Shown here one piece after another: positions 16,917 through 33,175 of a stretch of 64,000 nucleotides of DNA (its first letter is position 1; the number at the start of each line of letters is the position of its first letter). Position numbers and translations under genes: made by a program. This DNA is from Squalus acanthias (Eukaryota): positions 15,936,001-16,000,000 of the forward strand of contig CM059432.1 in NCBI GenBank assembly GCA_030390025.1, read 5' to 3'. The notes under the pieces are model-generated. The model was not told where the DNA came from. It saw only the letters and a list, made by a program, of their open reading frames with translations, and did no database searches.

Positions 16917-17903
16917 AGAACATAAGAATATAAGAAATAGGAGCAGGAGTAGGCCATTTGGCCCTTTGAGCCTGCTCCACCATTCAATAAGATCATGGCT
17001 GATCTTCTACCTCATTTCCACTTTCCTGAACTATCCCCATATCCCTTGATTCCCCATATATTCAAAAATCTATCGATCTCTGTCTTGAATATACTCAATG
17101 ACTGAGCCTCCACAGCCCACTGGGATAGAGAATTCCAAAGATTCACCACCCTCTGAGTGAAGAAATTTCTCCTGATCTCAGTCCTAAATGGCCGACCCCT
17201 TATTCTGAGACTGTGACCCCTGGTTCTAGACTCCCCAGCCAGGGGAAACATCCTCCCAGCATCTACCCTGTCAAGCCCTGTAAGAATTTTATATGTTTCA
17301 ATGAGATCACACCTCATTCTTCTAAACTCTAGAGAATATAGGCCTAGTCTACTTAATCTCCCCTCATAGGACAATCCCCCCATCCCAGGAATCAGTCTGG
17401 TGAACCTTTGTTGCACTCCCTCTATGCAAGTATATCCTTCCTTAGGTAAGGAGGCCAAAACTGTATACAATACTCCAGGTGTGGTCTCACCAGGGCCCTA
17501 TATAATTGCAGTAAGACGTCTTTACTCTTATACTCAAATCCTCTTGTAATAAAGGCCAACATACCATTTGCTTTCCTAATTGCTTGCATGTTAACTTTCA
17601 GTGATTCATGTACAAGGACATCCAGGTCCCTCTGAACACCAACATTTTCCAATCTCTCACCATTTAAAAAAAATACCCTGCTTTACTATTTTTCCTACCA
17701 AAGTGGATAACTTCACATTTCTCCACATTATATTCCATTTGCCATGTTCTTGCCCACTCACTTAGTCTGTCTATATACCCTTGAAGCCTCCTTGCATCCT
17801 CCTCACAACTTACATTCCCACCCAGCTTTGTATCATCAGCACACTTGGATATATTACATTTGGTCCCCTAATCCAAATCATTGATGTAGATTGTGAATAG
17901 CTG
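16917..17903 (-). mobile_element. CR1 3' fragment
   Basis: CR1 ORF2 C-terminal peptides and (TTCTTATG/A)n tail. Confidence 0.88.
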
Positions 17904-19512: not shown

Positions 19513-20550
19513 AGTGTTACTTTTGGTTAATCCTAAAGTTGTTTCGAAAAACAACCCTGACAAGGAAAGAAGCCCTTCTGTCCCCTTCGGTGACTGACTT
19601 ACGATGTGACTGAATCCATCCACTAAGCCAGAATCAGCAAGGCCTGCGTTTATGGTAGTGCCTTACCGGATATCTCCGAAACATCTCAACCTTCAGTCTA
19701 ATCCCGATAATTTGAAGTTATTTTTCCACTTAAACAAAAGTCTGAATTATCCAGTAGTTTGAATTAGGCGATGGAAATAAACCAGCAAATTGGGAATCTA
19801 GTCCTTTAAAAAACAAAGTGAATTATCAGGTAATTCCGCTTGATACAAGTTTAGAGCAGACGGCAGTGAATTCGAAGTGCGGTGAATGTTATGTGGGCAA
19901 ACCTGGAAGCCATTTGCGCACAAACATTGTCACATAACTTTGCCGAAGGTGTAACAGATTGGTCAAATATTGGTTGTCGGGTTTGGTCTGATTTTTACAG
20001 AGTGACGGGAGTACCTGCAGGGTAAATTGGTCAAAAAAAGTCATAGCGTTGTACAATAAGATTTCATCCCCCTTTCATCTGTAGTGCTCTTGCTGCCAAT
20101 CCGCAGCGAACTAAAATCGCTTCTGCTTCCAGCCAAAGCTGACACAGTGCCCCAGAGCCCGAAGTACGTTGTAGCATCACAGTTACACATTGAGATGTCC
20201 CGTGCCGATTAGCATGAATCTGACTTTGTTGGACAGTAGCTAACGCACCTGAACGAGGTATGCACAGATGAGCTGCACTGGGTACACTGACTTGCGCCAA
20301 AATGCCACTGTGCATGTGCAGATGCATGTGTAAACCAGCATGTATGAACCTGCACAATGTCGCTGTATGTTTCAAAGGAATTCTCGATACCGTGAGTACA
20401 AATTGTTTGATGCAAGTGAGGCAACTTTATTTAACACTTGGACCGATCAAGGATTTATTAAAAGGCTAGGAGTTAATTGCCAATTATCCAAATGCTATAT
20501 AGCAGATCTAACCAAGCCAGGGGAGTTCTCTTAAGCCCTCCGTTAGCTGG

Positions 20551-20744
20551 TGTCGTAAGAATGAGCCTTACGCGTGGTGAACTTAAAGTAAGCTTTAATC
20601 AACTAAAAAGGTGCTACATACAAAAGAAGTCTTACTCTATGCCTCTCCAGGATCCAACTGATCAGTCCAGTATTTATCCTGGACTAATCACAGGAAGTGA
20701 TGCAATAAAGTTCGAGTCACAGGAAGCTGTATTGTGTTACCACA
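20551..20744 (-). repeat. 3' LTR of the Gypsy element (194 bp)
   Basis: Identical to 27185-27378 except for one A/G difference (caaaagaagt vs caaaagaggt). Confidence 0.97.
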
Positions 20745-20756
20745 TTCTCCCCCCCC
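20745..20756 (-). other. Polypurine tract
   Basis: GGGGGGGGAGAA on -, directly abutting the 3' LTR. Confidence 0.9.
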
Positions 20757-20762
20757 AAAAGA

Positions 20763-23645
20763 TTAGGAGGCCGGGATGCTCCCGCCATTTCGTAGCCGCT
20801 GGACGAGGGAGAGCCGCACCCGTTTGGGTTCTCGTAGCGGTAGAGGGCCCCTAGCCCGTTTACCCGCCACGGGCCGTGGACCAGAGTCCGAGTGATCCAG
20901 CCCGCTCTGTGAGGGGTCAGGACGATCCTGACTGTGTACTGGTACCCAAACGGGTGTCGGGCAGGGCTGTGGCAGATCCATTTCCGAGCGTACGGTACGG
21001 GGTGGATCGTGGCTGCGCGTGCGAGCCCCGACGGGCTCATAGTCAGTCTGCCCCAGGTCGGCACGCTGGAGTGAGGTACCAGCCAGCGTCAGATCCAGAT
21101 CGTGATGAGAGGCACCTGGCGAGCCCAGAGATGTGCCTGGTACAATATCATCCCCTGGTGTCCCTCTATGTTTCGGCGGGCAGGGAGCCAGATCCCGCAA
21201 TGACACGGTAGATTCCCGACCGTCAGGATACCGAATATAGGCGTAGGTAGGGTTGACGTCAGTGAGCTCAACTTCATCTACCAGGGGGTCATTCTTAGAT
21301 GCCCGGACATATCTTCGGAGTAGCACTGGTCCCGGTGTAGTCAGCCACGACGGGAGAGATATCCCATAGGATGAGCGACGCTGAAATCGGAAGAACCGTT
21401 CATGAGGCGTCGTATTTGTGGCGGTCGAAAGGAGGGACCGTGTGGAGTGTAATGCGTCTGGAAGTACTGCTTCCCATTGCTGGTTGGGTAGGCCCCGAGA
21501 TCTCAAAGCCAGACGTACCGCATTCCAGATGATAGCGTTAAAACGCTCGACTTGCCCATTCCCGACCGGATGATAAGGCGTCGTTCTGCTGGCAGCAATA
21601 CCCCGTTCCGAGAGATAGGCCTTGAGTTCTCCTGACATAAAAGAAGGGCCCCGATCCGAATGAACATAGGATGCCATGCCACAGAAAGCAAAAACCTGCT
21701 CAAGGCAGCTGATAACCGTGGTCGTCAGCATATTGGGGCAGGGAAAGGCAAACGGAAAACGGGAATACTCATCGACCATGGTCAACAGATAAGTGTTGCG
21801 AGTTGAAGAGGGCAACGGCCCCTTAAAATCGATGCTAAGCCGTTGCATTGGCTGGGTCGTATGTATGAGTATACCACCCGAGGGGCGGAAAAACTGAGGT
21901 TTCAATTCCGCACAGACTCTGCAGTCCGAGCACATCTTCTTTACATCCCCGGTAGAGAATGGGAGATTTCGGGACCGCACGAAGTGTAGCATGCGAGTAA
22001 CGCCCGGATGACACAACCCATCATGGATGTCTACGAGCATAGAGGGTGCCATGGCGGAGCAGAATGCTCGTGTGAGGGTATCCGGAGCCACATTCTCCTT
22101 GCCAGGTCGATAGTGGATGGTGTAACCAAAAGAGGCCAATTCCAGCCGCCAAAGCTGGATTTTATTATTTTTAATTTCGGTCCGTTTTCGATTATCGAGC
22201 ATGAAGGCGACCGAACGCTGGTCCGTGATTAAGGTAAAGTGCTGGCGAGCTAGGAGATGACTCCACTTCCGTACTGCCTCTATGATGGCTGTAGCTTCTT
22301 TCTCGACTGGAGGATAATGTAGCTCAGCCCCTTGAAAAGTCCTGGACAAAAATGCCACCGGACGACCTTCCTGATTCAGAGTGGCCGAGATCGCCACCTC
22401 CGAGGCATCACACTCAACAACAAAAGGAAGACTCTCATCGATGGAGTGAAGAGCCGCTTTCTCCAACTGTTTTTTCAGGAGGTTAAAGGCTGCAACAGCC
22501 GCTGTGTCTAGTGGGAATGTGCTGGCCTTCAGTAGAGGTTGGATTCGGTCCGAGAAGTTAGGAATCCATTTAGCATAGTATGCAAACAGGCCGAGGGCCC
22601 GGCGCAAGGAGGCCGGATTCTTAGGTGGCGGGAGTTCTTGGAGTGGGCGAAGCCTTTCAGGGTCAGGTTTAATGATGCCATTGCCCACACAATAGCCAAG
22701 GATGTTGATGGTTGGTTGTGACTCAATGGATTTAGCCGCATTTAATGTCAAATTACGGTGCTGGAGTGCATCCCAAAATCGTTGGAGATTGGCGTCATGT
22801 TCCTGCTGATTGCGACCTGCGACAGTAATATTGTCCAGATAAGGAAACGTATCCTTCAAGTCTTCCTGTTTGACCAGGTCATCCATTGCTCGCTGGAAGA
22901 CAGCCACTCCATTAGTGACCCCAAAGGGGAGGCGACGAAATTGATACAGCCGTCCATTGGCTTCAAAGGCCGTATACTGCTTGTCTGAGACCTTCAAGGG
23001 TACCTGATGATAGGCACTTTTCAGATCATATGTTGAGAACACCGTGTACTCAGCCAGTTTATTAACCATATCATCGATGCCCGGCAATGGGTATACGTCC
23101 AAGTCCGTATATTGATTGATGGTCTGTGAATAGTCAATGCACAGCCGTTTCTTGTGAGGTTGTAGAGGGTTCTTAACAATAACGACCTGGGCGCGCCATG
23201 GCGACGAACAAGGCTCGATGATATCCTCTGCTAAAAGCCGAGAAATCTCAGTCGCAATAAAAGACTGGTCTTCCTGACTGAAACGTCGTGACTTTGTTAT
23301 AATCGATTTGCATCGAGGAGGGATACTGGTAAACAGTGAGGGTTCATCCAGTGAAGCTGCTGACAATGCACAGAACGGTAATCGAGGTCGTATATTAGAA
23401 ATAGTGAGTTCAGGTTTGGATCCGCCGAACTCAATGGTGAGCTTCTTATGCTGCTTTTGAAAATCCAGCCCTAAGATAAGATCACTACATAAATCCTTGA
23501 GCACCGAAAGCCAGGTGGAGGGATACCTGTGACCATTAAGTGTTATTTCAACCATACAAAAGCCAGAAATTCTGGTATTAAGTGATGACTGAGCCATCGC
23601 AACTGCCTGGTCCGATGGGAAAACATGTAGCTTTAACTCTGCAAC
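20763..23645 (-). CDS. Gypsy pol (protease C-half, RT, RNase H, integrase)
   Basis: LILGLDF; DLKSAYHQV, LPFGV, YLDN; RNase H CDAS/EKE/TDQ/APD; integrase HHCC and D(SIDF)-D(HSDRG)-E(VERFN). No stops. Confidence 0.95.
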   Translation of the reverse strand, partial: VAELKLHVFPSDQAVAMAQSSLNTRISGFCMVEITLNGHRYPSTWLSVLKDLCSDLILGLDFQKQHKKLTIEFGGSKPELTISNIRPRLPFCALSAASLDEPSLFTSIPPRCKSIITKSRRFSQEDQSFIATEISRLLAEDIIEPCSSPWRAQVVIVKNPLQPHKKRLCIDYSQTINQYTDLDVYPLPGIDDMVNKLAEYTVFSTYDLKSAYHQVPLKVSDKQYTAFEANGRLYQFRRLPFGVTNGVAVFQRAMDDLVKQEDLKDTFPYLDNITVAGRNQQEHDANLQRFWDALQHRNLTLNAAKSIESQPTINILGYCVGNGIIKPDPERLRPLQELPPPKNPASLRRALGLFAYYAKWIPNFSDRIQPLLKASTFPLDTAAVAAFNLLKKQLEKAALHSIDESLPFVVECDASEVAISATLNQEGRPVAFLSRTFQGAELHYPPVEKEATAIIEAVRKWSHLLARQHFTLITDQRSVAFMLDNRKRTEIKNNKIQLWRLELASFGYTIHYRPGKENVAPDTLTRAFCSAMAPSMLVDIHDGLCHPGVTRMLHFVRSRNLPFSTGDVKKMCSDCRVCAELKPQFFRPSGGILIHTTQPMQRLSIDFKGPLPSSTRNTYLLTMVDEYSRFPFAFPCPNMLTTTVISCLEQVFAFCGMASYVHSDRGPSFMSGELKAYLSERGIAASRTTPYHPVGNGQVERFNAIIWNAVRLALRSRGLPNQQWEAVLPDALHSTRSLLSTATNTTPHERFFRFQRRSSYGISLPSWLTTPGPVLLRRYVRASKNDPLVDEVELTDVNPTYAYIRYPDGRESTVSLRDLAPCPPKHRGTPGDDIVPGTSLGSPGASHHDLDLTLAGTSLQRADLGQTDYEPVGARTRSHDPPRTVRSEMDLPQPCPTPVWVPVHSQDRPDPSQSGLDHSDSGPRPVAGKRARGPLPLREPKRVRLSLVQRLRNGGSIPAS

Positions 23646-26032
23646 AACTCGGGAACAGGCTATATTGGACTGGGTACTGTGCAATGAGAAGGGACTAATT
23701 AGTAATCTTGTTGTACGGGGACCCTTGGGTCAGAGCGATCATAACATGATCGATTTCTCACTCGAAATGGAGAGCGAAGAAATTGACTCAGAGACTCAGG
23801 TCCTGAATTTAAACAAGGGGAATTATGATGCCATTAGACGGGAACTGAGTAGGTCTGATTGGACAACGTTCCTGGGAGGACTGGAGGTAGATAAACAATG
23901 GCAAGCATTTAAAGATAGAATGACAAAATTGCAAAAATTGTTTATACCAATCTGGCATAAAAGGAAATCTAAAAAGGTGACTCAACCGTGGATAACAGGG
24001 GAAATTAGAGACAGCATAAAATCCAAAGATAGGGCGTATAAAATAGCCAAAAAACGCGCCAGAGCGGAAGATTGGGAACAGTTTAAGATAGAGCAAAGGA
24101 GGGCAAAGGGCTTAATCAAGAAGGGCAAAATAGCTTACGAAAGCAAGCTGGCGGAAAATATAAAAACTAACTCCAAAAGCTTTTATAAGTATATCAAGAG
24201 GAAAAGACTGGTGAAAACCAAAGTTGGTCCATTGCAGTCAGATACGGGGGAATATATAATGGGAAATAAGGAAATGGCAGACCAACTAAATGCATACTTT
24301 GGGTCAGTCTTTACGAAGGAAGACACAAAAAACCTCCCTGGGATATCGGGAAAAATAGGGACATTGGCAAAGGAGGAACTGACGCAAATCAATATCTCTA
24401 AGGATATGGTGTTAAGGAAGCTAAAGGGATTGAAGGCGGACAAATCCCCAGGGCCTGATAACATGCATCCTAGGGTACTGAAGGAGGTGGCCCTAGAGAT
24501 AGCGGATGCACTAAGCATGATTTTTCAGAATTCATTAGACTCGGGAACAGTGCCCATGGATTGGAGGGTAGCTAACGTTACCCCACTATTCAAAAAGGGG
24601 GGTAGGGAAAAAGCAGGTAATTACAGACCTGTAAGCCTTACATCAGTTGTGGGCAAAATGCTGGAGTCCATCATTAAGGATGAAATAGCCGAGCACTTAG
24701 CAAATGGGGACAGGATAGGACAGAGTCAACATGGATTTACAAAGGGTAAATCGTGCTTGACTAATCTATTGGAATTTTTTGAGGGAGTAACTGGTAAAAT
24801 AGATGGGGGAGAGCCAGTAGATGTGGTGTACCTGGACTTCCAAAAGGCCTTCGATAAGGTCCCACATAAAAGATTAGCATGGAAAATTGAAGCTCATGGG
24901 ATAAAGGGGAAAGTATTGACGTGGATAGAGAACTGGCTGTCAGATAGAAAACAGAGAGTTGGAATAAACGGCTCATTTTCTGAATGGCAGGCAGTAACAA
25001 GTGGGGTACCACAGGGATCTGTCCTGGGTCCCCAGCTGTTCACAATTTATATTAATGACCTGGATCAGGGAGTCGAATGCAGCATTTCCAAATTTGCAGA
25101 CGACACTAAACTAGGAGGGGGGGTGGGCTCAGAGGAGGAGACCAGGAAGCTCCAGAGCGATTTGGACAGACTGGGTGATTGGGCGGATAAATGGCAGATG
25201 CACTATAATGTGGACAAGTGCGAAGTTATCCACCTTGGGTGCAGGAACGGGAGGGCAAATTATTATTTAAATGGCAATAAATTGGGAGAGGGGGAAGTAC
25301 AGAGAGACCTGGGTGTTCTTGTACACCAGTCACTGAAGGCGAGCATGCAGGTGCAACAGGCGGTCAAGAAGGCAAACGGTATGCTGGCCTTCATAGCAAA
25401 AGGGTTGGAATACAGGAACAGGGATACCTTGCTGCAGCTGTACAGGGCACTGGTGAGACCACACCTCGAGTACTGTGTACAGTTTTGGTCGCCTCATCTG
25501 AGGAAAGATGTTCTTGCCATGGAGGGGGTGCAGCGGCGATTCACCAGGCTGATACCAGGAATGGCGGGATTGACCTATGAGGAGAGACTATGTAGTTTAG
25601 GGATGTACACACTGGAGTTTAGAAGATTGAGAGGGGACCTCATAGAAGTGTATAAAATTCTGACAGGTCTAGACAGATTAGATGCAGAAGGAATGTTTCC
25701 CTTGGCGGGTGAGAACAGAACTAGAGGACATAATTTAAGGATAAGGGCTAAACCATTTAGGACAGAAATGAGGGGGAATTTCTTCACTCAGAGAGTGGTG
25801 AACCTGTGGAACTCATTGCCACAGAGGGCAGTGTACGCCAGCTCATTAAATATATTTAAGAGGGAATTAGATATATTTCTACAGGCAAAAGGGGTTAAGG
25901 GTTACGGAGAGAAGGCGGGGACGGGATACTGAATTGAAGGATCAGCCATGATCTCATTAAATGGCGGAGCAGGCTCGAAGGGCCGGATGGCCTACTCCTG
26001 CTCCTATCTTCTATGTATCTATGTATCTATGT
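23646..26032 (+). mobile_element. 5'-truncated CR1 LINE nested in the Gypsy protease; open ORF2 fragment 23665-25932
   Basis: Endonuclease C-terminus (TREQAILD..SDHN), RT (GVPQGSVLGP, FADD), CR1 C-terminus and 3' UTR, ending in an (ATCTATGT)n tail. Confidence 0.96.
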
Positions 26033-27106
26033 AATCTGTTCCCTAATGAAACTATCAGTGCTACCTGAGTCAATTAAGGCATCTAAAGTATGTCCATTAA
26101 TTGATGCTTTTGTAGCTGCATGGAATAGGTTCTGAGGACAAGCAGCTGTAATTGGTGTCATTGCACAAAGAGTGGCTGAAACTCTAGGTGTGTTTCTTCG
26201 AGAGGAAACCCGAGGGGAAGCACGATAGATGTTAGCCGGAACATCTTGATAGGCCCTTACCGGGGCAGTTCGGTAGGACTTAGCTTGATAAGCCCTCGTA
26301 GAGGCTCTAGATAGGCAAACCTTTGCAAAATGACCCTTTTTGTTGCAATGACTACAAAACGCATTGCGAGCAGGGCAGAATTTCCGAGGGTGAAACTCAT
26401 CACCACAAAAGAAGCATTTCTTAGATTGCCAAGAGGCTGCCACAGTGGGGTCATCATCCTCTTCATCAGTGAAGTCATCAGATTGATCGTCAGGGATAAA
26501 GACCTCCCTAATAGAGTTCACCTGTGGCCTCTTAAATTGCCTGACTGTAGTTAAGGCAGTAGACCGAGGTCTGGGCACTGTATAAAGGTCCGCATTTCTT
26601 TTTGCCAGATCTAGAGAGCAAGCCATGTCATAAGCTCTCTGAAGCTCAAGTGTCTTACTTTCCAGTAGACGCTGGCGTATAAATGGGGAGGCAAGCCCGC
26701 AGATGAAAGCATCACGGATCATTTCTTCACGGTACAGCTCAGCTGAGGCCGCCTGAAAGTTACAGTCCATACTAAGTCTGCGAAGCTCTTGGAGGAATTT
26801 ATCAATGGATTCCTCCGGCCCTTGTTGGGCTGTAGCTAGTAGATGTCTGGCATAGACCTCATTCGGTGTCTTAGTATATAGTCTCTTAAGCGTCCGAATT
26901 GCCTCCTCGTAACTGTCCCATTCCTCCACATACTGAAATACATTCGGGGTGACACAGTTGATGAGTATCCGCAACTTTGAGTCATCATCAGCCTTGCAGT
27001 ATTCAAGAAAATTGTCAAACGTGCGATACCAGTGTTTCCACACCTTACCGGCTGCTGGGGTGTTTGGGTCCAAGTCAAGACGCGATGGTTTAAGGATGTT
27101 TTCCAT
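26033..27106 (-). CDS. Gypsy gag plus N-terminal part of aspartic protease (interrupted by CR1)
   Basis: MENILKPSRLDLDP...; tandem zinc knuckles CFFCGDEFHPRKFC-PA-RNAFCSHCNKKGHFAKVC; protease active site LIDSGS. Confidence 0.92.
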
Positions 27107-27172
27107 GATGGGTGATTCCCTGGATCCTTAGTTCCGAGTTCATCCAAAAAGTTTGAGTGCGAAGTTTTTCAA

Positions 27173-27183
27173 AGTTGATTAAA
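27173..27183 (-). other. Non-tRNA primer-binding site (putative self-priming)
   Basis: TTTAATCAACT on -, 1 nt from the 5' LTR, with no TGG. Perfectly complementary to AGTTGATTAAA inside the LTR (27228-27238). Confidence 0.7.
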
Positions 27184-27184
27184 T

Positions 27185-27378
27185 TGTCGTAAGAATGAGC
27201 CTTACGCGTGGTGAACTTAAAGTAAGCTTTAATCAACTAAAAAGGTGCTACATACAAAAGAGGTCTTACTCTATGCCTCTCCAGGATCCAACTGATCAGT
27301 CCAGTATTTATCCTGGACTAATCACAGGAAGTGATGCAATAAAGTTCGAGTCACAGGAAGCTGTATTGTGTTACCACA
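27185..27378 (-). repeat. 5' LTR of the Gypsy element (194 bp)
   Basis: On - it contains a GATAAATA TATA-like box, two CTTCCTGTGA repeats and ATTAAA; ends TGT...ACA. Confidence 0.97.
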
Positions 27379-27612
27379 GCTGGGGTACCTGGAGGGGGAG
27401 AGCCTTTTTTGGATAACCCGAAGTGTTGCACACTCTGGTGAGCATTCCATTGGTAACAGAGCGTTTGTGGGTTATTTAAAAGAGCACGTCAGCTAATCCG
27501 ATAGACATGACTACCACGGACACTGGTGCCTGGGAAACTAGTCATGCACACATGGTTGACTGCCCTAAAGGTAAACAAAGTGGTGCTAACTCCATACCTC
27601 CTGTGTACAAGA

Positions 27613-28272
27613 TATAAGAACATATGAAATAGGAGCAGGAGTCGGCCATTCGGCCCCTCAAGCCTGCTCCACCATTCAATAAGATCATGGCTGATCTTCT
27701 ACCTCATCTCCACTTTCCTGAACTATCCCCATATCCCTTGATTCCCTTAATATTCAAAAATCTATCGATCTCTGTCTTGAATATACTCAACGACTGAGCC
27801 TCCACAGCCCTTTGGGGTAGAGAATTCCAAAGATTCACCACCATCTGAGTGAAGAAATTTCTCCTCAGTCCTAAATGGCCGACCTCTTATTCTGAGACTG
27901 TGACCCCTGGTTCTAGACTCCCCATGATGCGGAGATGCCGGTGTTGGACTGGGGTGGACACAATTGAGGAAGGGGCGATCGATAGCTCCGAAAGCTTGTG
28001 ATTTCAAATAAAACTCTTTGGACTATAACCTGGTGTTGTGCGACCTCTCAATCTAGACTCCCCAGCCAGGGGAAACATCCTCCCTGCATCTACCCTGTCA
28101 CGCCCTGTAAGAATTTTGTATGTTTCAATGAGATCACCCCTCATTCTTCTAAACGCTAGAGAATATAGGTCTAGGCTACTCGAATCTGTCCTCATAGGAC
28201 AATCCCCCCATCCCAGGAACCAGTCTGGTGAACCTTCATTGCACTCCCTCTATGGCAAGTATATCCTTCCTT
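27613..28272 (-). mobile_element. CR1 3' fragment carrying a 127-bp Penelope-like insert
   Basis: The CR1 C-terminal coding sequence is interrupted at 27925-28051, flanked by a duplicated TCTAGACTCCCCA. Confidence 0.82.
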
Positions 28273-30052: not shown

Positions 30053-30512
30053 GAAAGACAGACTTGTATTTATATAGCACCTTTCATGACCACCGGACGT
30101 CCCAAAGCGCTTTAGAGCCAATGAAGTACTTTTGAAGCATAGTCACTGTTGTAATGTAGGAAACGCAGCAACCAATTTGCGCACAGCAAGATTCCACAAA
30201 CAGTAATGTGATAATGACCAGATAATCTGTTTTAGTGATGTTGATTGAGGGATAAATATTGGCCAGGACACCGGGGATAACTCCTCTGCTCTTCTTCAAA
30301 ATAGTGCCATGGGATCTTTTACGTCCACCTGAGAGAGCAGACGGGGCCTCGGTTTCACGTCTCATCCGAACGACAGCACCTCTGACAGTGCAGCACTCCC
30401 TCAGCACTGCACTGGAGCCTCAGCCTAGATTTTTGTGCTCAAGTCTCTGGAGTGGGACTTGAACCCATGACCTGACGCAGAGGTGAGAGTGCTACGCACT
30501 GAGCCACAGCTA
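30053..30512 (-). mobile_element. Full-length Deu-domain SINE
   Basis: A box TGTGGCTCAGT, degenerate-flank B box GGTTCAAGTCCC, Deu-like core (aaagatcccatggcact...ccccggtgtcctggccaa), L2 tail. Partial copies at 31044-31313, 32042-32330 and 47872-48190(+). Confidence 0.8.
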
Positions 30513-33175
30513 ACATCAAATGTTGCTGTAAATGACGGGTAATTTAAAGATTTATTACCGGGTGAATTGGCTGCTTGTTCTACCACCCTGCCTGATTTTA
30601 TTTTCCTTTGAATTCAATGGATAAGAACATCAGGCGAGCTGTAAAACAGGTGGTCAATTCGCTATCGCTCATTTTTTGCCTGCCGATAAAAGGTAAAATT
30701 ACCCCATTGTAACTAAACCTAGTTTGTTAGTCTAGTTTACCCCAAAAGTGTTTGGTTTAACTGATATAGATCAATCATCTGAAGGGACATGGGCATGTAG
30801 TAAATCCAGAGAGAATAAACAAGTCTATTGGTTACCCTGGTCACAATATCTCAGATTAGCATGTGCACAAGATCTCCCTTCAGATCATAGGAGGCACACG
30901 GTTACTTTGGGAGATGACTTTTGTGTTGTACACAAGCAAAAGTAGATGGAGAAGCCCAAATTGCAGCACGCATTCAAACAGCAACTTATCTTAAGTATCT
31001 GCAAAGGGCAGGAGGGAGAAAAGGGCAAATTAAAAAAAAGAAAATGAAGTACTTTTGAAGTGTAGTCACTGTTGCAATGTGGGAACGCAGCAGCCAATTT
31101 GCGCACAGCAAGCTCCCACAAACAACAATGTGATAATGACCAGATAATCTGTTTTTGTTATGTTGATTGAGGGATAAATATTGGCCAGGACACCGGGGAG
31201 AACTCCCCTACTCTTCGAAATAGTGCCATGGGATCTTTTACGTCCACCTGAGAGAGCAGACGGGGCCTCGCTTTAATGTCTCATCCAAAAGATGGCACCT
31301 CCGACAATGCAGTAAAGGTTAAGGATACCAAAGCATAGTTGAAGGGAAGGATCTTAAGGAGGCTTTTGAAGGCAGGGAGGGTGGTTACAAGGTGGAGGGA
31401 CTGGAAGAAGGAATTCCAGAGGGTGGGAGTTAGTGGCTGAAGGAGCGGCTGGCAATGGTAAAGCAGGGGACTGCGATACAAGTAGTCTTGTGTCAGAGAA
31501 AGCTAGGCTGCCTACAGGGATATACAACTGCAAGACTTCACTGAGATGCTGGGTCAAAGCTATGGAGTGATGTAAAGCTGATGCAAGGTTCTAAAGGTGC
31601 TTTGTTGTTCGGTACTGGGGTTATGGTCCATAGAGAAAGGCAAGTCAGATAATTGCCATTCAGCTTCAGCCAGGTAGGGGTCCTTATACTGCATACCACC
31701 ACCGCCACCCTTGTTAATGGGTTTTATGACAACGTCAAGGTTGGAACTATGAGAATGGAAAGCTACAAGTTCAAAGAGAGATTTGGTATGGGGAGTAGAG
31801 AAATTCAGACAACCAATATCACACCTGAAGTTCTCAATGTATTACACAGCACAGACAGGCCATTCAGCCCAACTGGTCCATGGTTTATGCTCCACAACAG
31901 CCTCCTCCCACTCCTTCATCTCACCCCATCAGCATATACATCTATTCCTTTCTCCCTCATTTACTTATCTAACGTTCCCTTAAATCTATTCGCTTCAACT
32001 ACTCCATGTGCTAGCAAGTTCCACATTCTAACAACTTTTAAAGAAAATTTATATGCATTTCTATAGCGCCTTTCACAACCAGCGGTCATCCCAAAGCGCT
32101 TTAGAGCCAATGAAGTACTTTTTCCAAGTGTAGTCACTGTTGTAATGTATGAAATGCGCACAGCAAGCTCCCACAATGACCAGATAATCTGTTTTAGTGA
32201 TGTTGATTGAGGGATAAATATTGGCCAGGACACCGGGGATAACTCCCCTGCTCTTCTTCGAAATAGTGCCATGGGATCTTTTACGTCCACCTGAGAGGGC
32301 CTTGGTTCAATCTCTCATCTGAAATATGGACAGTCTTGTTGGTTATTAAAATGTAAAATTATGATTTCAAGATAATTATATGCAGGCTTTATAGTTTCAA
32401 AATGTTTTCATACTAAAACTGAATTAGTATATAACTGGAATGTAGAAATAAGTTAAAATGTAAAAAGCAACTTTTTTTTATTATTTTTATTGGTATATGG
32501 TATGAACTTGGTAAATTACAATATACATTTGTACACATTTTTAATGCGTTTGTGCATAGTCAGTAGTATTGGAGTATTCTTAGGAAGTTTGTCATTGCTT
32601 CCATTGAACTATTTGATATACTATGCACGTGGGTTGAGAACACAACTGAACATTTTGGCCGTTCTATCTCTGTACACATACTGAACATAAACACACCCAT
32701 GGGATGTTCTGTTCAGCTCGTCACCATTGGGAACATGGACTAAATGAAGGCTGCTCTAAGAGTAGCAAGTGGTTCTACAGCAGGAGTCCGGCAACGATAT
32801 AGAAGACCACTCCTACCAATTTTCTGTCATTACCCACTGTGTACCACTGATGCGCTGGAAGTGAAAGGCAAGTCGGAATCACCCATTGCATGGAGTCATA
32901 TCACGTAGCATGAAAGGTAGGTACGTACATAAATAACAGGAATAAAAAAAACAAAAAGGAGCCAAACAGAAGTAATTTGTCATGTTTTAAAGTAATGGTT
33001 GTATGTATAATTGTCCTATCCTATTAAAGGGGTAGTGTCAGTAAGAATATTTGGCTTGTAAGCCAGGATTTTCTGTCTAGAAATCTTGATTGGACTTTCA
33101 AAGATGACAGCTTCTCTTTAAATCAGATGTTTTTTGGATGATCTACAAAAGTAGGAGCTTCATTGAACAGTGTTT

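Follow-up and report, generated by a model that had tools for sequence, protein, structure and literature searches.

Covariation between the long terminal repeat and the primer-binding site points to self-primed reverse transcription in a chromodomain-less Ty3/Gypsy clade of animals

Introduction

How does a Ty3/Gypsy retrotransposon start minus-strand DNA synthesis when no tRNA-type primer-binding site (PBS) adjoins its 5′ long terminal repeat (LTR)? The question is raised by an element on the minus strand of a 64,000-nt stretch of the Squalus acanthias genome (GCA_030390025.1, contig CM059432.1, positions 15,936,001 to 16,000,000), called the window here; coordinates are those of the window. 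An earlier note, made from the letters of this DNA, had proposed that the element dispenses with tRNA and primes from its own LTR, as Tf1 does. Covariation between the two complementary segments among divergent relatives supports this core proposal, and the clade to which the element belongs most likely uses its own RNA to initiate minus-strand synthesis, in a Tf1-like manner.

In Tf1, the primer consists of the first 11 nt of the mRNA, and RNase H releases it by cutting where the duplex ends. A stem-loop termed U5-IR was reportedly described for Tf1 by Lin and Levin in 1997/1998. To our knowledge, experimental proof of self-priming is limited to fission-yeast Tf1-type elements. Self-priming is described for Tf1, Tf2 and Tj1, in which the 5′ part of the mRNA pairs with the PBS and serves as primer (PMC4600332). 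Three further groups, namely the Tf1/sushi group (present in fungi through to vertebrates), the plant Tcn1 clade and the TAR Copia elements, have been predicted to self-prime on the criterion that at least 10 nt starting 0–5 nt past the 5′ LTR are complementary to the 5′ LTR (PMC6317226). With these groups already published, the caution that accompanied the original proposal as to its novelty was well placed. Among the papers listed in a literature search on self-priming and gypsy elements, none deals with Mag, SURL or Steamer-type elements by title; older Jule, SURL and sushi papers or Repbase reports may mention it.

The Sequence Next to the 5′ LTR Pairs With the LTR Itself

The 5′ LTR terminates on the minus strand with ...CTTACGACA at 27185. 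It is followed not by TGG but by an A at 27184 and then by TTTAATCAACT, the putative PBS. This segment is complementary at 11 of 11 bases to an arm within the LTR, AGTTGATTAAA, from which it is separated by a loop of 44 nt. The window element thus offers 11 bp of complementarity, starting within 0–5 nt of the 5′ LTR, where the published criterion asks for 10. The earlier note had described this pairing, and its letters and coordinates were verified, including the perfect pairing with the LTR 44 nt upstream and the lack of TGG. The ATTAAA hexamer that the LTR 11-mer was said to overlap forms the last six bases of the arm, and the stem-loop CGTAAG/CTTACG attributed to U5 is present at 27206..27188.

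Such complementarity is rarely produced by base composition: the 11-mer appears in 3 of 20,000 dinucleotide-preserving shuffles of the LTR. In the predicted fold of an 81-nt RNA, the two arms are paired, with a minimum free energy of −16.6 kcal/mol (z-score −3.48) that none of 200 shuffles equals. No Rfam family was matched over 27000–27450 at E ≤ 1.

A first-look search of the genome (3.7 Gb) for the LTR-leader stretch gave at least 759 candidates. The 40 copies scored were all 98–100% identical, which indicates that the family is young and abundant; their near-identity also makes the genomic copies uninformative on covariation.

A second variant of the LTR (27185–27336) differs at 12 letters and carries one extra base behind 27237, beside the primer arm. 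It occurs in contigs of all four sequencing runs examined, which bear three organism labels, so that the family and its sub-family are found in several labelled organisms.

Relatives of the Element

The pol protein has hundreds of relatives with 55–88% identity. The homologs listed span 629–1,551 residues and are mostly gag-pol proteins of about 1,200 residues; the named sources are shrimp, sea louse, sea anemones, soft coral, mussel, nematode, tunicate and catshark. None of the 120 homologs listed has a chromodomain among its precomputed Pfam entries.

The same genome harbors a sister family, B, whose pol DNA is about 72% identical, whereas its LTR measures 215 nt and has an unrelated U3. Its frames are uninterrupted and reach 1,341 residues, most of them having 1,315. 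Family B retains a 13-bp pair, CAAGTTGATTAAA and TTTAATCAACTTG, which is likewise situated 1 nt past the LTR. Its gag-pol (1,313 residues) has no chromodomain match at E ≤ 1. A search of metagenome contigs with a 20-sequence alignment added 70 loci.

Gag-pol sequences 70–76% identical to the shark element are also present in invertebrate records and in metagenome contigs (including locus L046). So high an identity between phyla is reminiscent of Steamer-like elements, for which horizontal transfer has been reported.

The Inverted Repeat Occupies the Position of the PBS

For each gag start, a script given no arms beforehand searched as much as 260 nt of upstream sequence for the best perfect inverted repeat. 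A gag start is detectable in 33 loci, the window included, and 28 of them carry a perfect repeat of 10–19 nt; in L058, L066 and L067 the upstream sequence is too short for assessment. Of the 29 loci that extend 200 nt or more upstream of gag, 27 have a repeat of 10 nt or longer, compared with 14 of 290 shuffles.

The position of the repeat is constant. A second LTR copy was located in 12 of 24 representative loci, 3.8–4.3 kb downstream (6.6 kb in the window). In all 12, the similarity between the LTRs ends at ...CA and the 3′ arm begins 1 nt later. These LTRs are 152–220 nt long in 11 cases, the gapless estimate for the remaining one being cut short; the elements measure about 3.9–4.5 kb without insertions, and duplications of 5 bp are visible in 8 of the 12. 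On the other side, 13 of the 28 repeat-bearing loci have only 13–18 nt between the start of the 3′ arm and the gag ATG, which leaves no room for another PBS. No PBS of any family surveyed starts with TGG. The partner sequence of the LTR arm is absent downstream of the 3′ LTR. The distant or gag-less loci L061, L089, L091, L097 and L110 have no LTR pairs and so provide no outgroup PBS.

Two loci, L061 and L073, contain an 18-nt perfect inverted repeat on the strand opposite to the pol match, with the 3′ arm directly after ...ACGACA. This repeat may belong to another element with a similar pairing between LTR and PBS.

The Two Arms Covary

For the analysis of covariation, 25 sequences were aligned, both 18-nt arm windows being free of gaps. 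They contain 16 distinct 12-nt arm cores. Standard pairs account for 86.7% of the cells, compared with 70.5% in shuffles, and sliding the register by 1–3 columns reduces pairing to only 25–49%. As the earlier proposal implied, PBS and LTR arm show compensatory changes in related families: both sides have changed at 14 of the 18 pairs. The covariation score, 0.470, was reached by none of 500 shuffles, whose mean is 0.165. Columns 9–15 are paired in all 25 sequences, and six of these seven columns vary, solely by double changes. G-U pairs are nearly absent from the core of the helix (one cell within columns 6–18).

Individual replacements can be followed between loci whose loops are near-identical. 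A change of G-C to U-A at one pair separates L049 from L055, L056 and L111, and one of U-A to C-G separates L053 from L054 and L057.

The sequences bordering the helix are also conserved. The 5′ arm ends in ATTAAA in 13 of the 25 sequences, AATAAA in 2, GTTAAA in 3, TTAAAA in 3, TTTAAA in 1 and other hexamers in 3. It is followed by GCC (17/25) or ACC (5/25), and in many relatives the predicted folds place a small hairpin of the CCU...AGG type right after it. Immediately before the 3′ arm stands ACAA or TCAA in 22 of 25 sequences, followed by TTTA or TTTT. The constant position of the repeat and its poly(A)-like end are independent of how the alignment was constructed. The loop ranges from 24 to 68 nt, and the arms are paired in the predicted folds of all 25 sequences (median z-score −3.95). 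The feature is real and far exceeds chance expectation, and a large animal clade conserves it, with covariation. We observed directly the pairing, where it lies, how its arms covary and that no tRNA-type site is present.

Proposed Priming Mechanism

For the cleavage, the enzyme, the start of the RNA and the details of strand transfer, we infer the following course. A stretch of 10–19 nt in the LTR transcript would fold back onto its complement, which starts 1 nt past the LTR; the 3′ end of this stretch would be formed by the poly(A)-signal-like hexamer. Cleavage of the RNA would follow at the inner duplex end, behind ...AAA, presumably by the RNase H of the element by analogy with Tf1. The freed 3′-OH would then be extended across the loop of 24–68 nt, which corresponds to U5. 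The resulting short strong-stop DNA may move to the 3′ end of the RNA, using as homology the stretch from the hexamer to the poly(A) site. For the window element, the expected product would be a minus-strand strong-stop DNA of about 44 nt, whose 5′ end is linked to element RNA terminating in ...UUGAUUAAA, and an RNA fragment with an end at 27228 would be expected as well. Because the family is young and abundant in this genome, such RNA and cDNA intermediates should be observable.

The pattern of substitutions may reflect the same cycle. The near-absence of G-U pairs would be easier to reconcile with a PBS that is re-copied as DNA from the primer than with an RNA helix maintained by selection only. 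Locus L048 (8988–9070, with the 3′ LTR copy 3857 nt downstream) has the same A-to-T change of the arm in both LTRs, whereas its PBS is unchanged. This would fit a scheme in which the 3′ R provides the arm of a new copy and the template provides its PBS, and L048 possibly represents the first step of a compensatory pair of changes.

Several points weigh against self-priming as formulated here. The support for it lies at the level of sequence throughout. The alignment was built on the best repeat of each locus, and pairing of the core is therefore partly a matter of construction. Two loci with adequate upstream sequence, L084 and L107, have no repeat of 9 nt or longer, and the aligned copies L048, L051 and L076 each contain one mismatch. 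A canonical AAUAAA or AUUAAA hexamer terminates the arm in only 15 of 25 sequences. Transcription probably starts upstream of the arm, in which case the primer would be internal to R, rather than comprising the first bases of the RNA as in Tf1. Finally, host tRNAs were sampled very incompletely. The Rfam tRNA model was run on the whole genome and 63 of about 369,000 candidates were scored; 30 fetched loci yielded 7 distinct sequences, of tRNA-Lys(UUU) and tRNA-Cys only, and the longest complement to the leader among them is 5 nt, in a sample too small to serve as evidence. ARAGORN detected no tRNA within the window.

Transcription Start and the Poly(A) Signal

One part of the earlier proposal, that transcription starts near 27238, found no support. 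A TATA-like ATAAATA at 27311..27305 would place the start about 43 nt upstream of the 11-mer, near 27281. In contigs from four sequencing runs, which give no start site, short unitig-like pieces break at the LTR ends, 27185 and 27378. The ends of metagenome contigs were considered as transcript ends and rejected: the terminal repeats are exactly 127 nt in L052, L053 and L057, which identifies them as an assembler k-mer artefact, and those of other contigs (105, 123 and 43 nt) are likewise assembler artefacts. The 127-nt artefact mimics transcript ends located just past the poly(A)-like hexamer.

An RNA starting upstream of the arm would have to keep its 5′ poly(A) signal silent. The helix could provide this function, too, and masking restricted to the 5′ signal is possible because the PBS half occurs only at the 5′ end of the RNA. 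A broader and rather doubtful reading, which we put forward tentatively, is that a pan-metazoan chromodomain-less clade has exchanged the tRNA primer for an internal piece of R that doubles as poly(A) signal, a single helix of 10–19 bp both priming and hiding the 5′ signal. Under this dual role the PBS would be re-copied from the primer in each cycle, which would account for the double changes, for the rarity of G-U intermediates and for copies such as L048.

Alternative Explanations

The helix could be a regulatory RNA structure only, serving to mask the 5′ poly(A) signal or in packaging or dimerisation, with priming achieved by other means. Three observations are in line with it: a poly(A)-like hexamer stands at the inner end of the 5′ arm (ATTAAA or AATAAA in the counts above, and other A/T-rich hexamers in the remaining 10), the partner of the arm is missing downstream of the 3′ LTR, and an RNA start upstream of the arm, as the TATA-like box suggests, would require silencing of the 5′ signal. 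We nevertheless regard it as unlikely, since the 3′ arm always lies 1 nt past the LTR end, which is the position of a PBS; there is no TGG after the LTR, and the short distance to the gag ATG offers no alternative site. The scarcity of G-U pairs would also be unusual for a purely structural RNA helix. Masking is moreover compatible with priming and may be an added function.

In a variant of self-priming, the primer would be supplied by the 3′ R, whose arm is identical, or by another RNA packaged alongside, and would act in trans. If R spans the arm, as the structure of the LTRs would imply, the same sequence is available at both ends of the RNA, and the combination of a shared arm variant and an unchanged PBS in L048 suggests that arm and PBS are inherited by different routes. 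The short conserved loop and the folds with paired arms favor a local fold-back, so that priming in trans appears improbable; the present data do not separate cis from trans.

Priming by a host RNA (a tRNA, a tRNA fragment or another small RNA), with the LTR match as a secondary matter, is close to excluded: although described Mag-lineage elements have tRNA sites (PMC3286476, PMC8905726, PMC11046912) and the host tRNA set was covered only in part, the PBS varies by family and always tracks its own LTR, which makes a host tRNA very unlikely, contigs of one record prefix carry different pairs (L047, L049/L055, L064), no PBS starts with TGG, and the sampled tRNAs complement the leader by at most 5 nt. 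Self-priming by fold-back, perhaps with masking of the 5′ signal as an added function, remains the preferred explanation.

Architecture of the Element and Its Surroundings

The features of the element are collected in Table 1. It measures 4,443 bp once the nested LINE is subtracted, and in other genome copies 26033 is joined directly to 23647, the LINE being absent there. The gag translation contains two C-X2-C-X4-H-X4-C arrays and a weak zf-CCHC_3 match. Pfam domains follow the order Asp_protease, RVT_1, RT_RNaseH, Integrase_H2C2 and rve. These domains, together with the LTR ends, the target-site duplication and the polypurine tract, place the element in Ty3/Gypsy (Metaviridae). It lacks a chromodomain, as had been stated: Pfam gives no match in the window pol at E ≤ 0.001, or in its last 278 residues even at E ≤ 1.

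Table 1. Features of the Ty3/Gypsy element in the window, listed in the direction of its transcription.
Feature	Position	Strand	Basis
5′ copy of the 5-bp target-site duplication, CCAGC	27379..27383	-	sequence comparison of flanks
5′ LTR, 194 nt, TGT...ACA ends	27185..27378	-	1 mismatch vs 3′ LTR
TATA-like ATAAATA inside the LTR, also in sister family B	27305..27311	-	sequence reading
Proposed self-primer AGTTGATTAAA; final six bases are ATTAAA, poly(A)-signal-like	27228..27238	-	complementarity, fold, covariation
Small predicted hairpin GCUUA/UAAGU, directly 3′ of the primer arm	27215..27227	-	predicted fold
U5 hairpin CGTAAG(G)/(U)CTTACG	27188..27206	-	sequence and fold; CGTAAG 27206..27201, CTTACG 27193..27188
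Single spacer A separating LTR end from PBS	27184	-	sequence reading
Putative PBS TTTAATCAACT, complement of 27238..27228, without TGG	27173..27183	-	complementarity, covariation
gag (two CCHC knuckles, start at 27106) and start of protease, interrupted by the nested LINE	26033..27106	-	translation, Pfam
Nested 5′-truncated CR1-like LINE with RVT_1, in the protease region	23648..26032	+	Pfam; foreign to the Gypsy element
Remaining pol: rest of protease, reverse transcriptase (RT), RNase H, integrase; without chromodomain	20766..23647	-	Pfam
Polypurine tract GGGGGGGGAGAA, immediately before the 3′ LTR	20745..20756	-	sequence reading
3′ LTR, 194 nt	20551..20744	-	LTR comparison
3′ copy of the target-site duplication, CCAGC	20546..20550	-	sequence comparison of flanks

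The nested LINE has a stop-to-stop frame of 779 residues that includes the RVT_1 domain. Elsewhere in the window, a repeat of 252 nt occurs at 27614–27865 and 16922–17173; the two copies are 94% alike and resemble the tail of a LINE or SINE. Its contig depth (bins 27618–27700, four runs) is hundreds of times that of the Gypsy LTR, and on this summed depth the repeat is extremely abundant in this genome group. The region 30159–32256 contains direct repeats of 110–136 nt, spaced about 920–1040 nt apart and with 71–92% identity (families D2 and D5).

Implications

The probable self-priming, backed by covariation, would extend the logic known from Tf1 to a different lineage that is very widespread in animals. 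Annotation pipelines that seek tRNA-complementary sites will mislabel such elements or invent tRNA matches, and silencing by tRNA fragments aimed at primer-binding sites would miss them. The overlap between primer and poly(A) signal suggests a simple way for a short LTR to silence its 5′ poly(A) signal. If the dual role of the helix proposed above holds, self-priming either arose more than once in Ty3/Gypsy or predates the chromoviruses.

Comparison With Known Systems

In HIV-1, the poly(A) hairpin of the leader includes the hexamer of R and presumably restricts use of its 5′ copy. That hairpin lies wholly within R and is present at both ends of the RNA. In the window element, by contrast, the partner strand of the helix is outside the LTR, occurs at the 5′ end only and sits at the position of the PBS.

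Within Ty3/Gypsy, the Mag lineage is characterized by a nucleocapsid with two CCHC arrays (PMC2577118), and by short LTRs, gag and pol in one frame, and a broad distribution among metazoans (PMC6238403, PMC3601003). The window element has two CCHC arrays, and with its relatives it shows short LTRs, compact size, a single gag-pol frame (in the relatives) and metazoan spread. The LTR end motifs given for Mag C, TGTNATRT ... AYANAACA (PMC3601003, Table 3), fit the 12 two-LTR loci loosely, with 1–4 mismatches at either end. A Mag-like assignment, possibly to a C-clade or SURL-like branch, is plausible on architecture only. Characterized Mag members have a tRNA-type PBS; this trait, which does not define the lineage, is absent here and constitutes a point of difference.

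The closest parallels in architecture are Steamer, Steamer-like elements and mosquito Mag, which share a length of 4–5 kb, LTRs of about 150–220 nt, gag-pol in a single frame, two zinc knuckles and target duplications of 5 bp; Steamer-like and Mag elements are also broadly spread over aquatic animal phyla (PMC8905726, PMC11046912, PMC3286476). Unlike the window clade, Steamer and mosquito Mag have a tRNA-type PBS directly after the LTR. The PBS of Steamer, TGGTGTCAGAAG, is complementary to tRNA-Leu (PMC8905726), mosquito Mag families use sites for tRNA-Leu, Ser or Arg (PMC3286476), and a putative tRNA-Asn site is given for MchSLE1 (PMC11046912). A Steamer-type PBS motif was sought in 145 loci; its single match falls inside coding sequence and was dismissed as chance, and none is located at an LTR end.

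With respect to priming, the nearest systems are Tf1 and Tf2 of Schizosaccharomyces pombe and Tj1 of S. japonicus. Like the window clade, they have no tRNA site. In both, a hairpin lies within the loop, in Tf1 reportedly the U5-IR. Tf1-type elements are fungal chromoviruses, whereas the window clade has no chromodomain; unlike in Tf1, its putative primer ends in a poly(A)-like hexamer, and the duplex measures 10–19 nt. In Tf1, Tf2 and Tj1 as well, a stretch of the element's own 5′ RNA complements the sequence that adjoins the 5′ LTR (PMC4600332). The predictions for Tf1/sushi (sushi-ichi), Tcn1 and TAR draw on the same kind of evidence as used here and on the same threshold of at least 10 bp (PMC6317226). 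Tf1/sushi and Tcn1 are chromoviruses and TAR is a Copia element; the window clade is neither and, judged by the chromodomain, falls outside Tf1/sushi. A chromodomain-less metazoan clade of this kind was not encountered among the predicted cases. The observations are best explained by a known mechanism operating in a new lineage, one in which tRNA priming is the described rule, and with a primer that overlaps a poly(A)-like hexamer.

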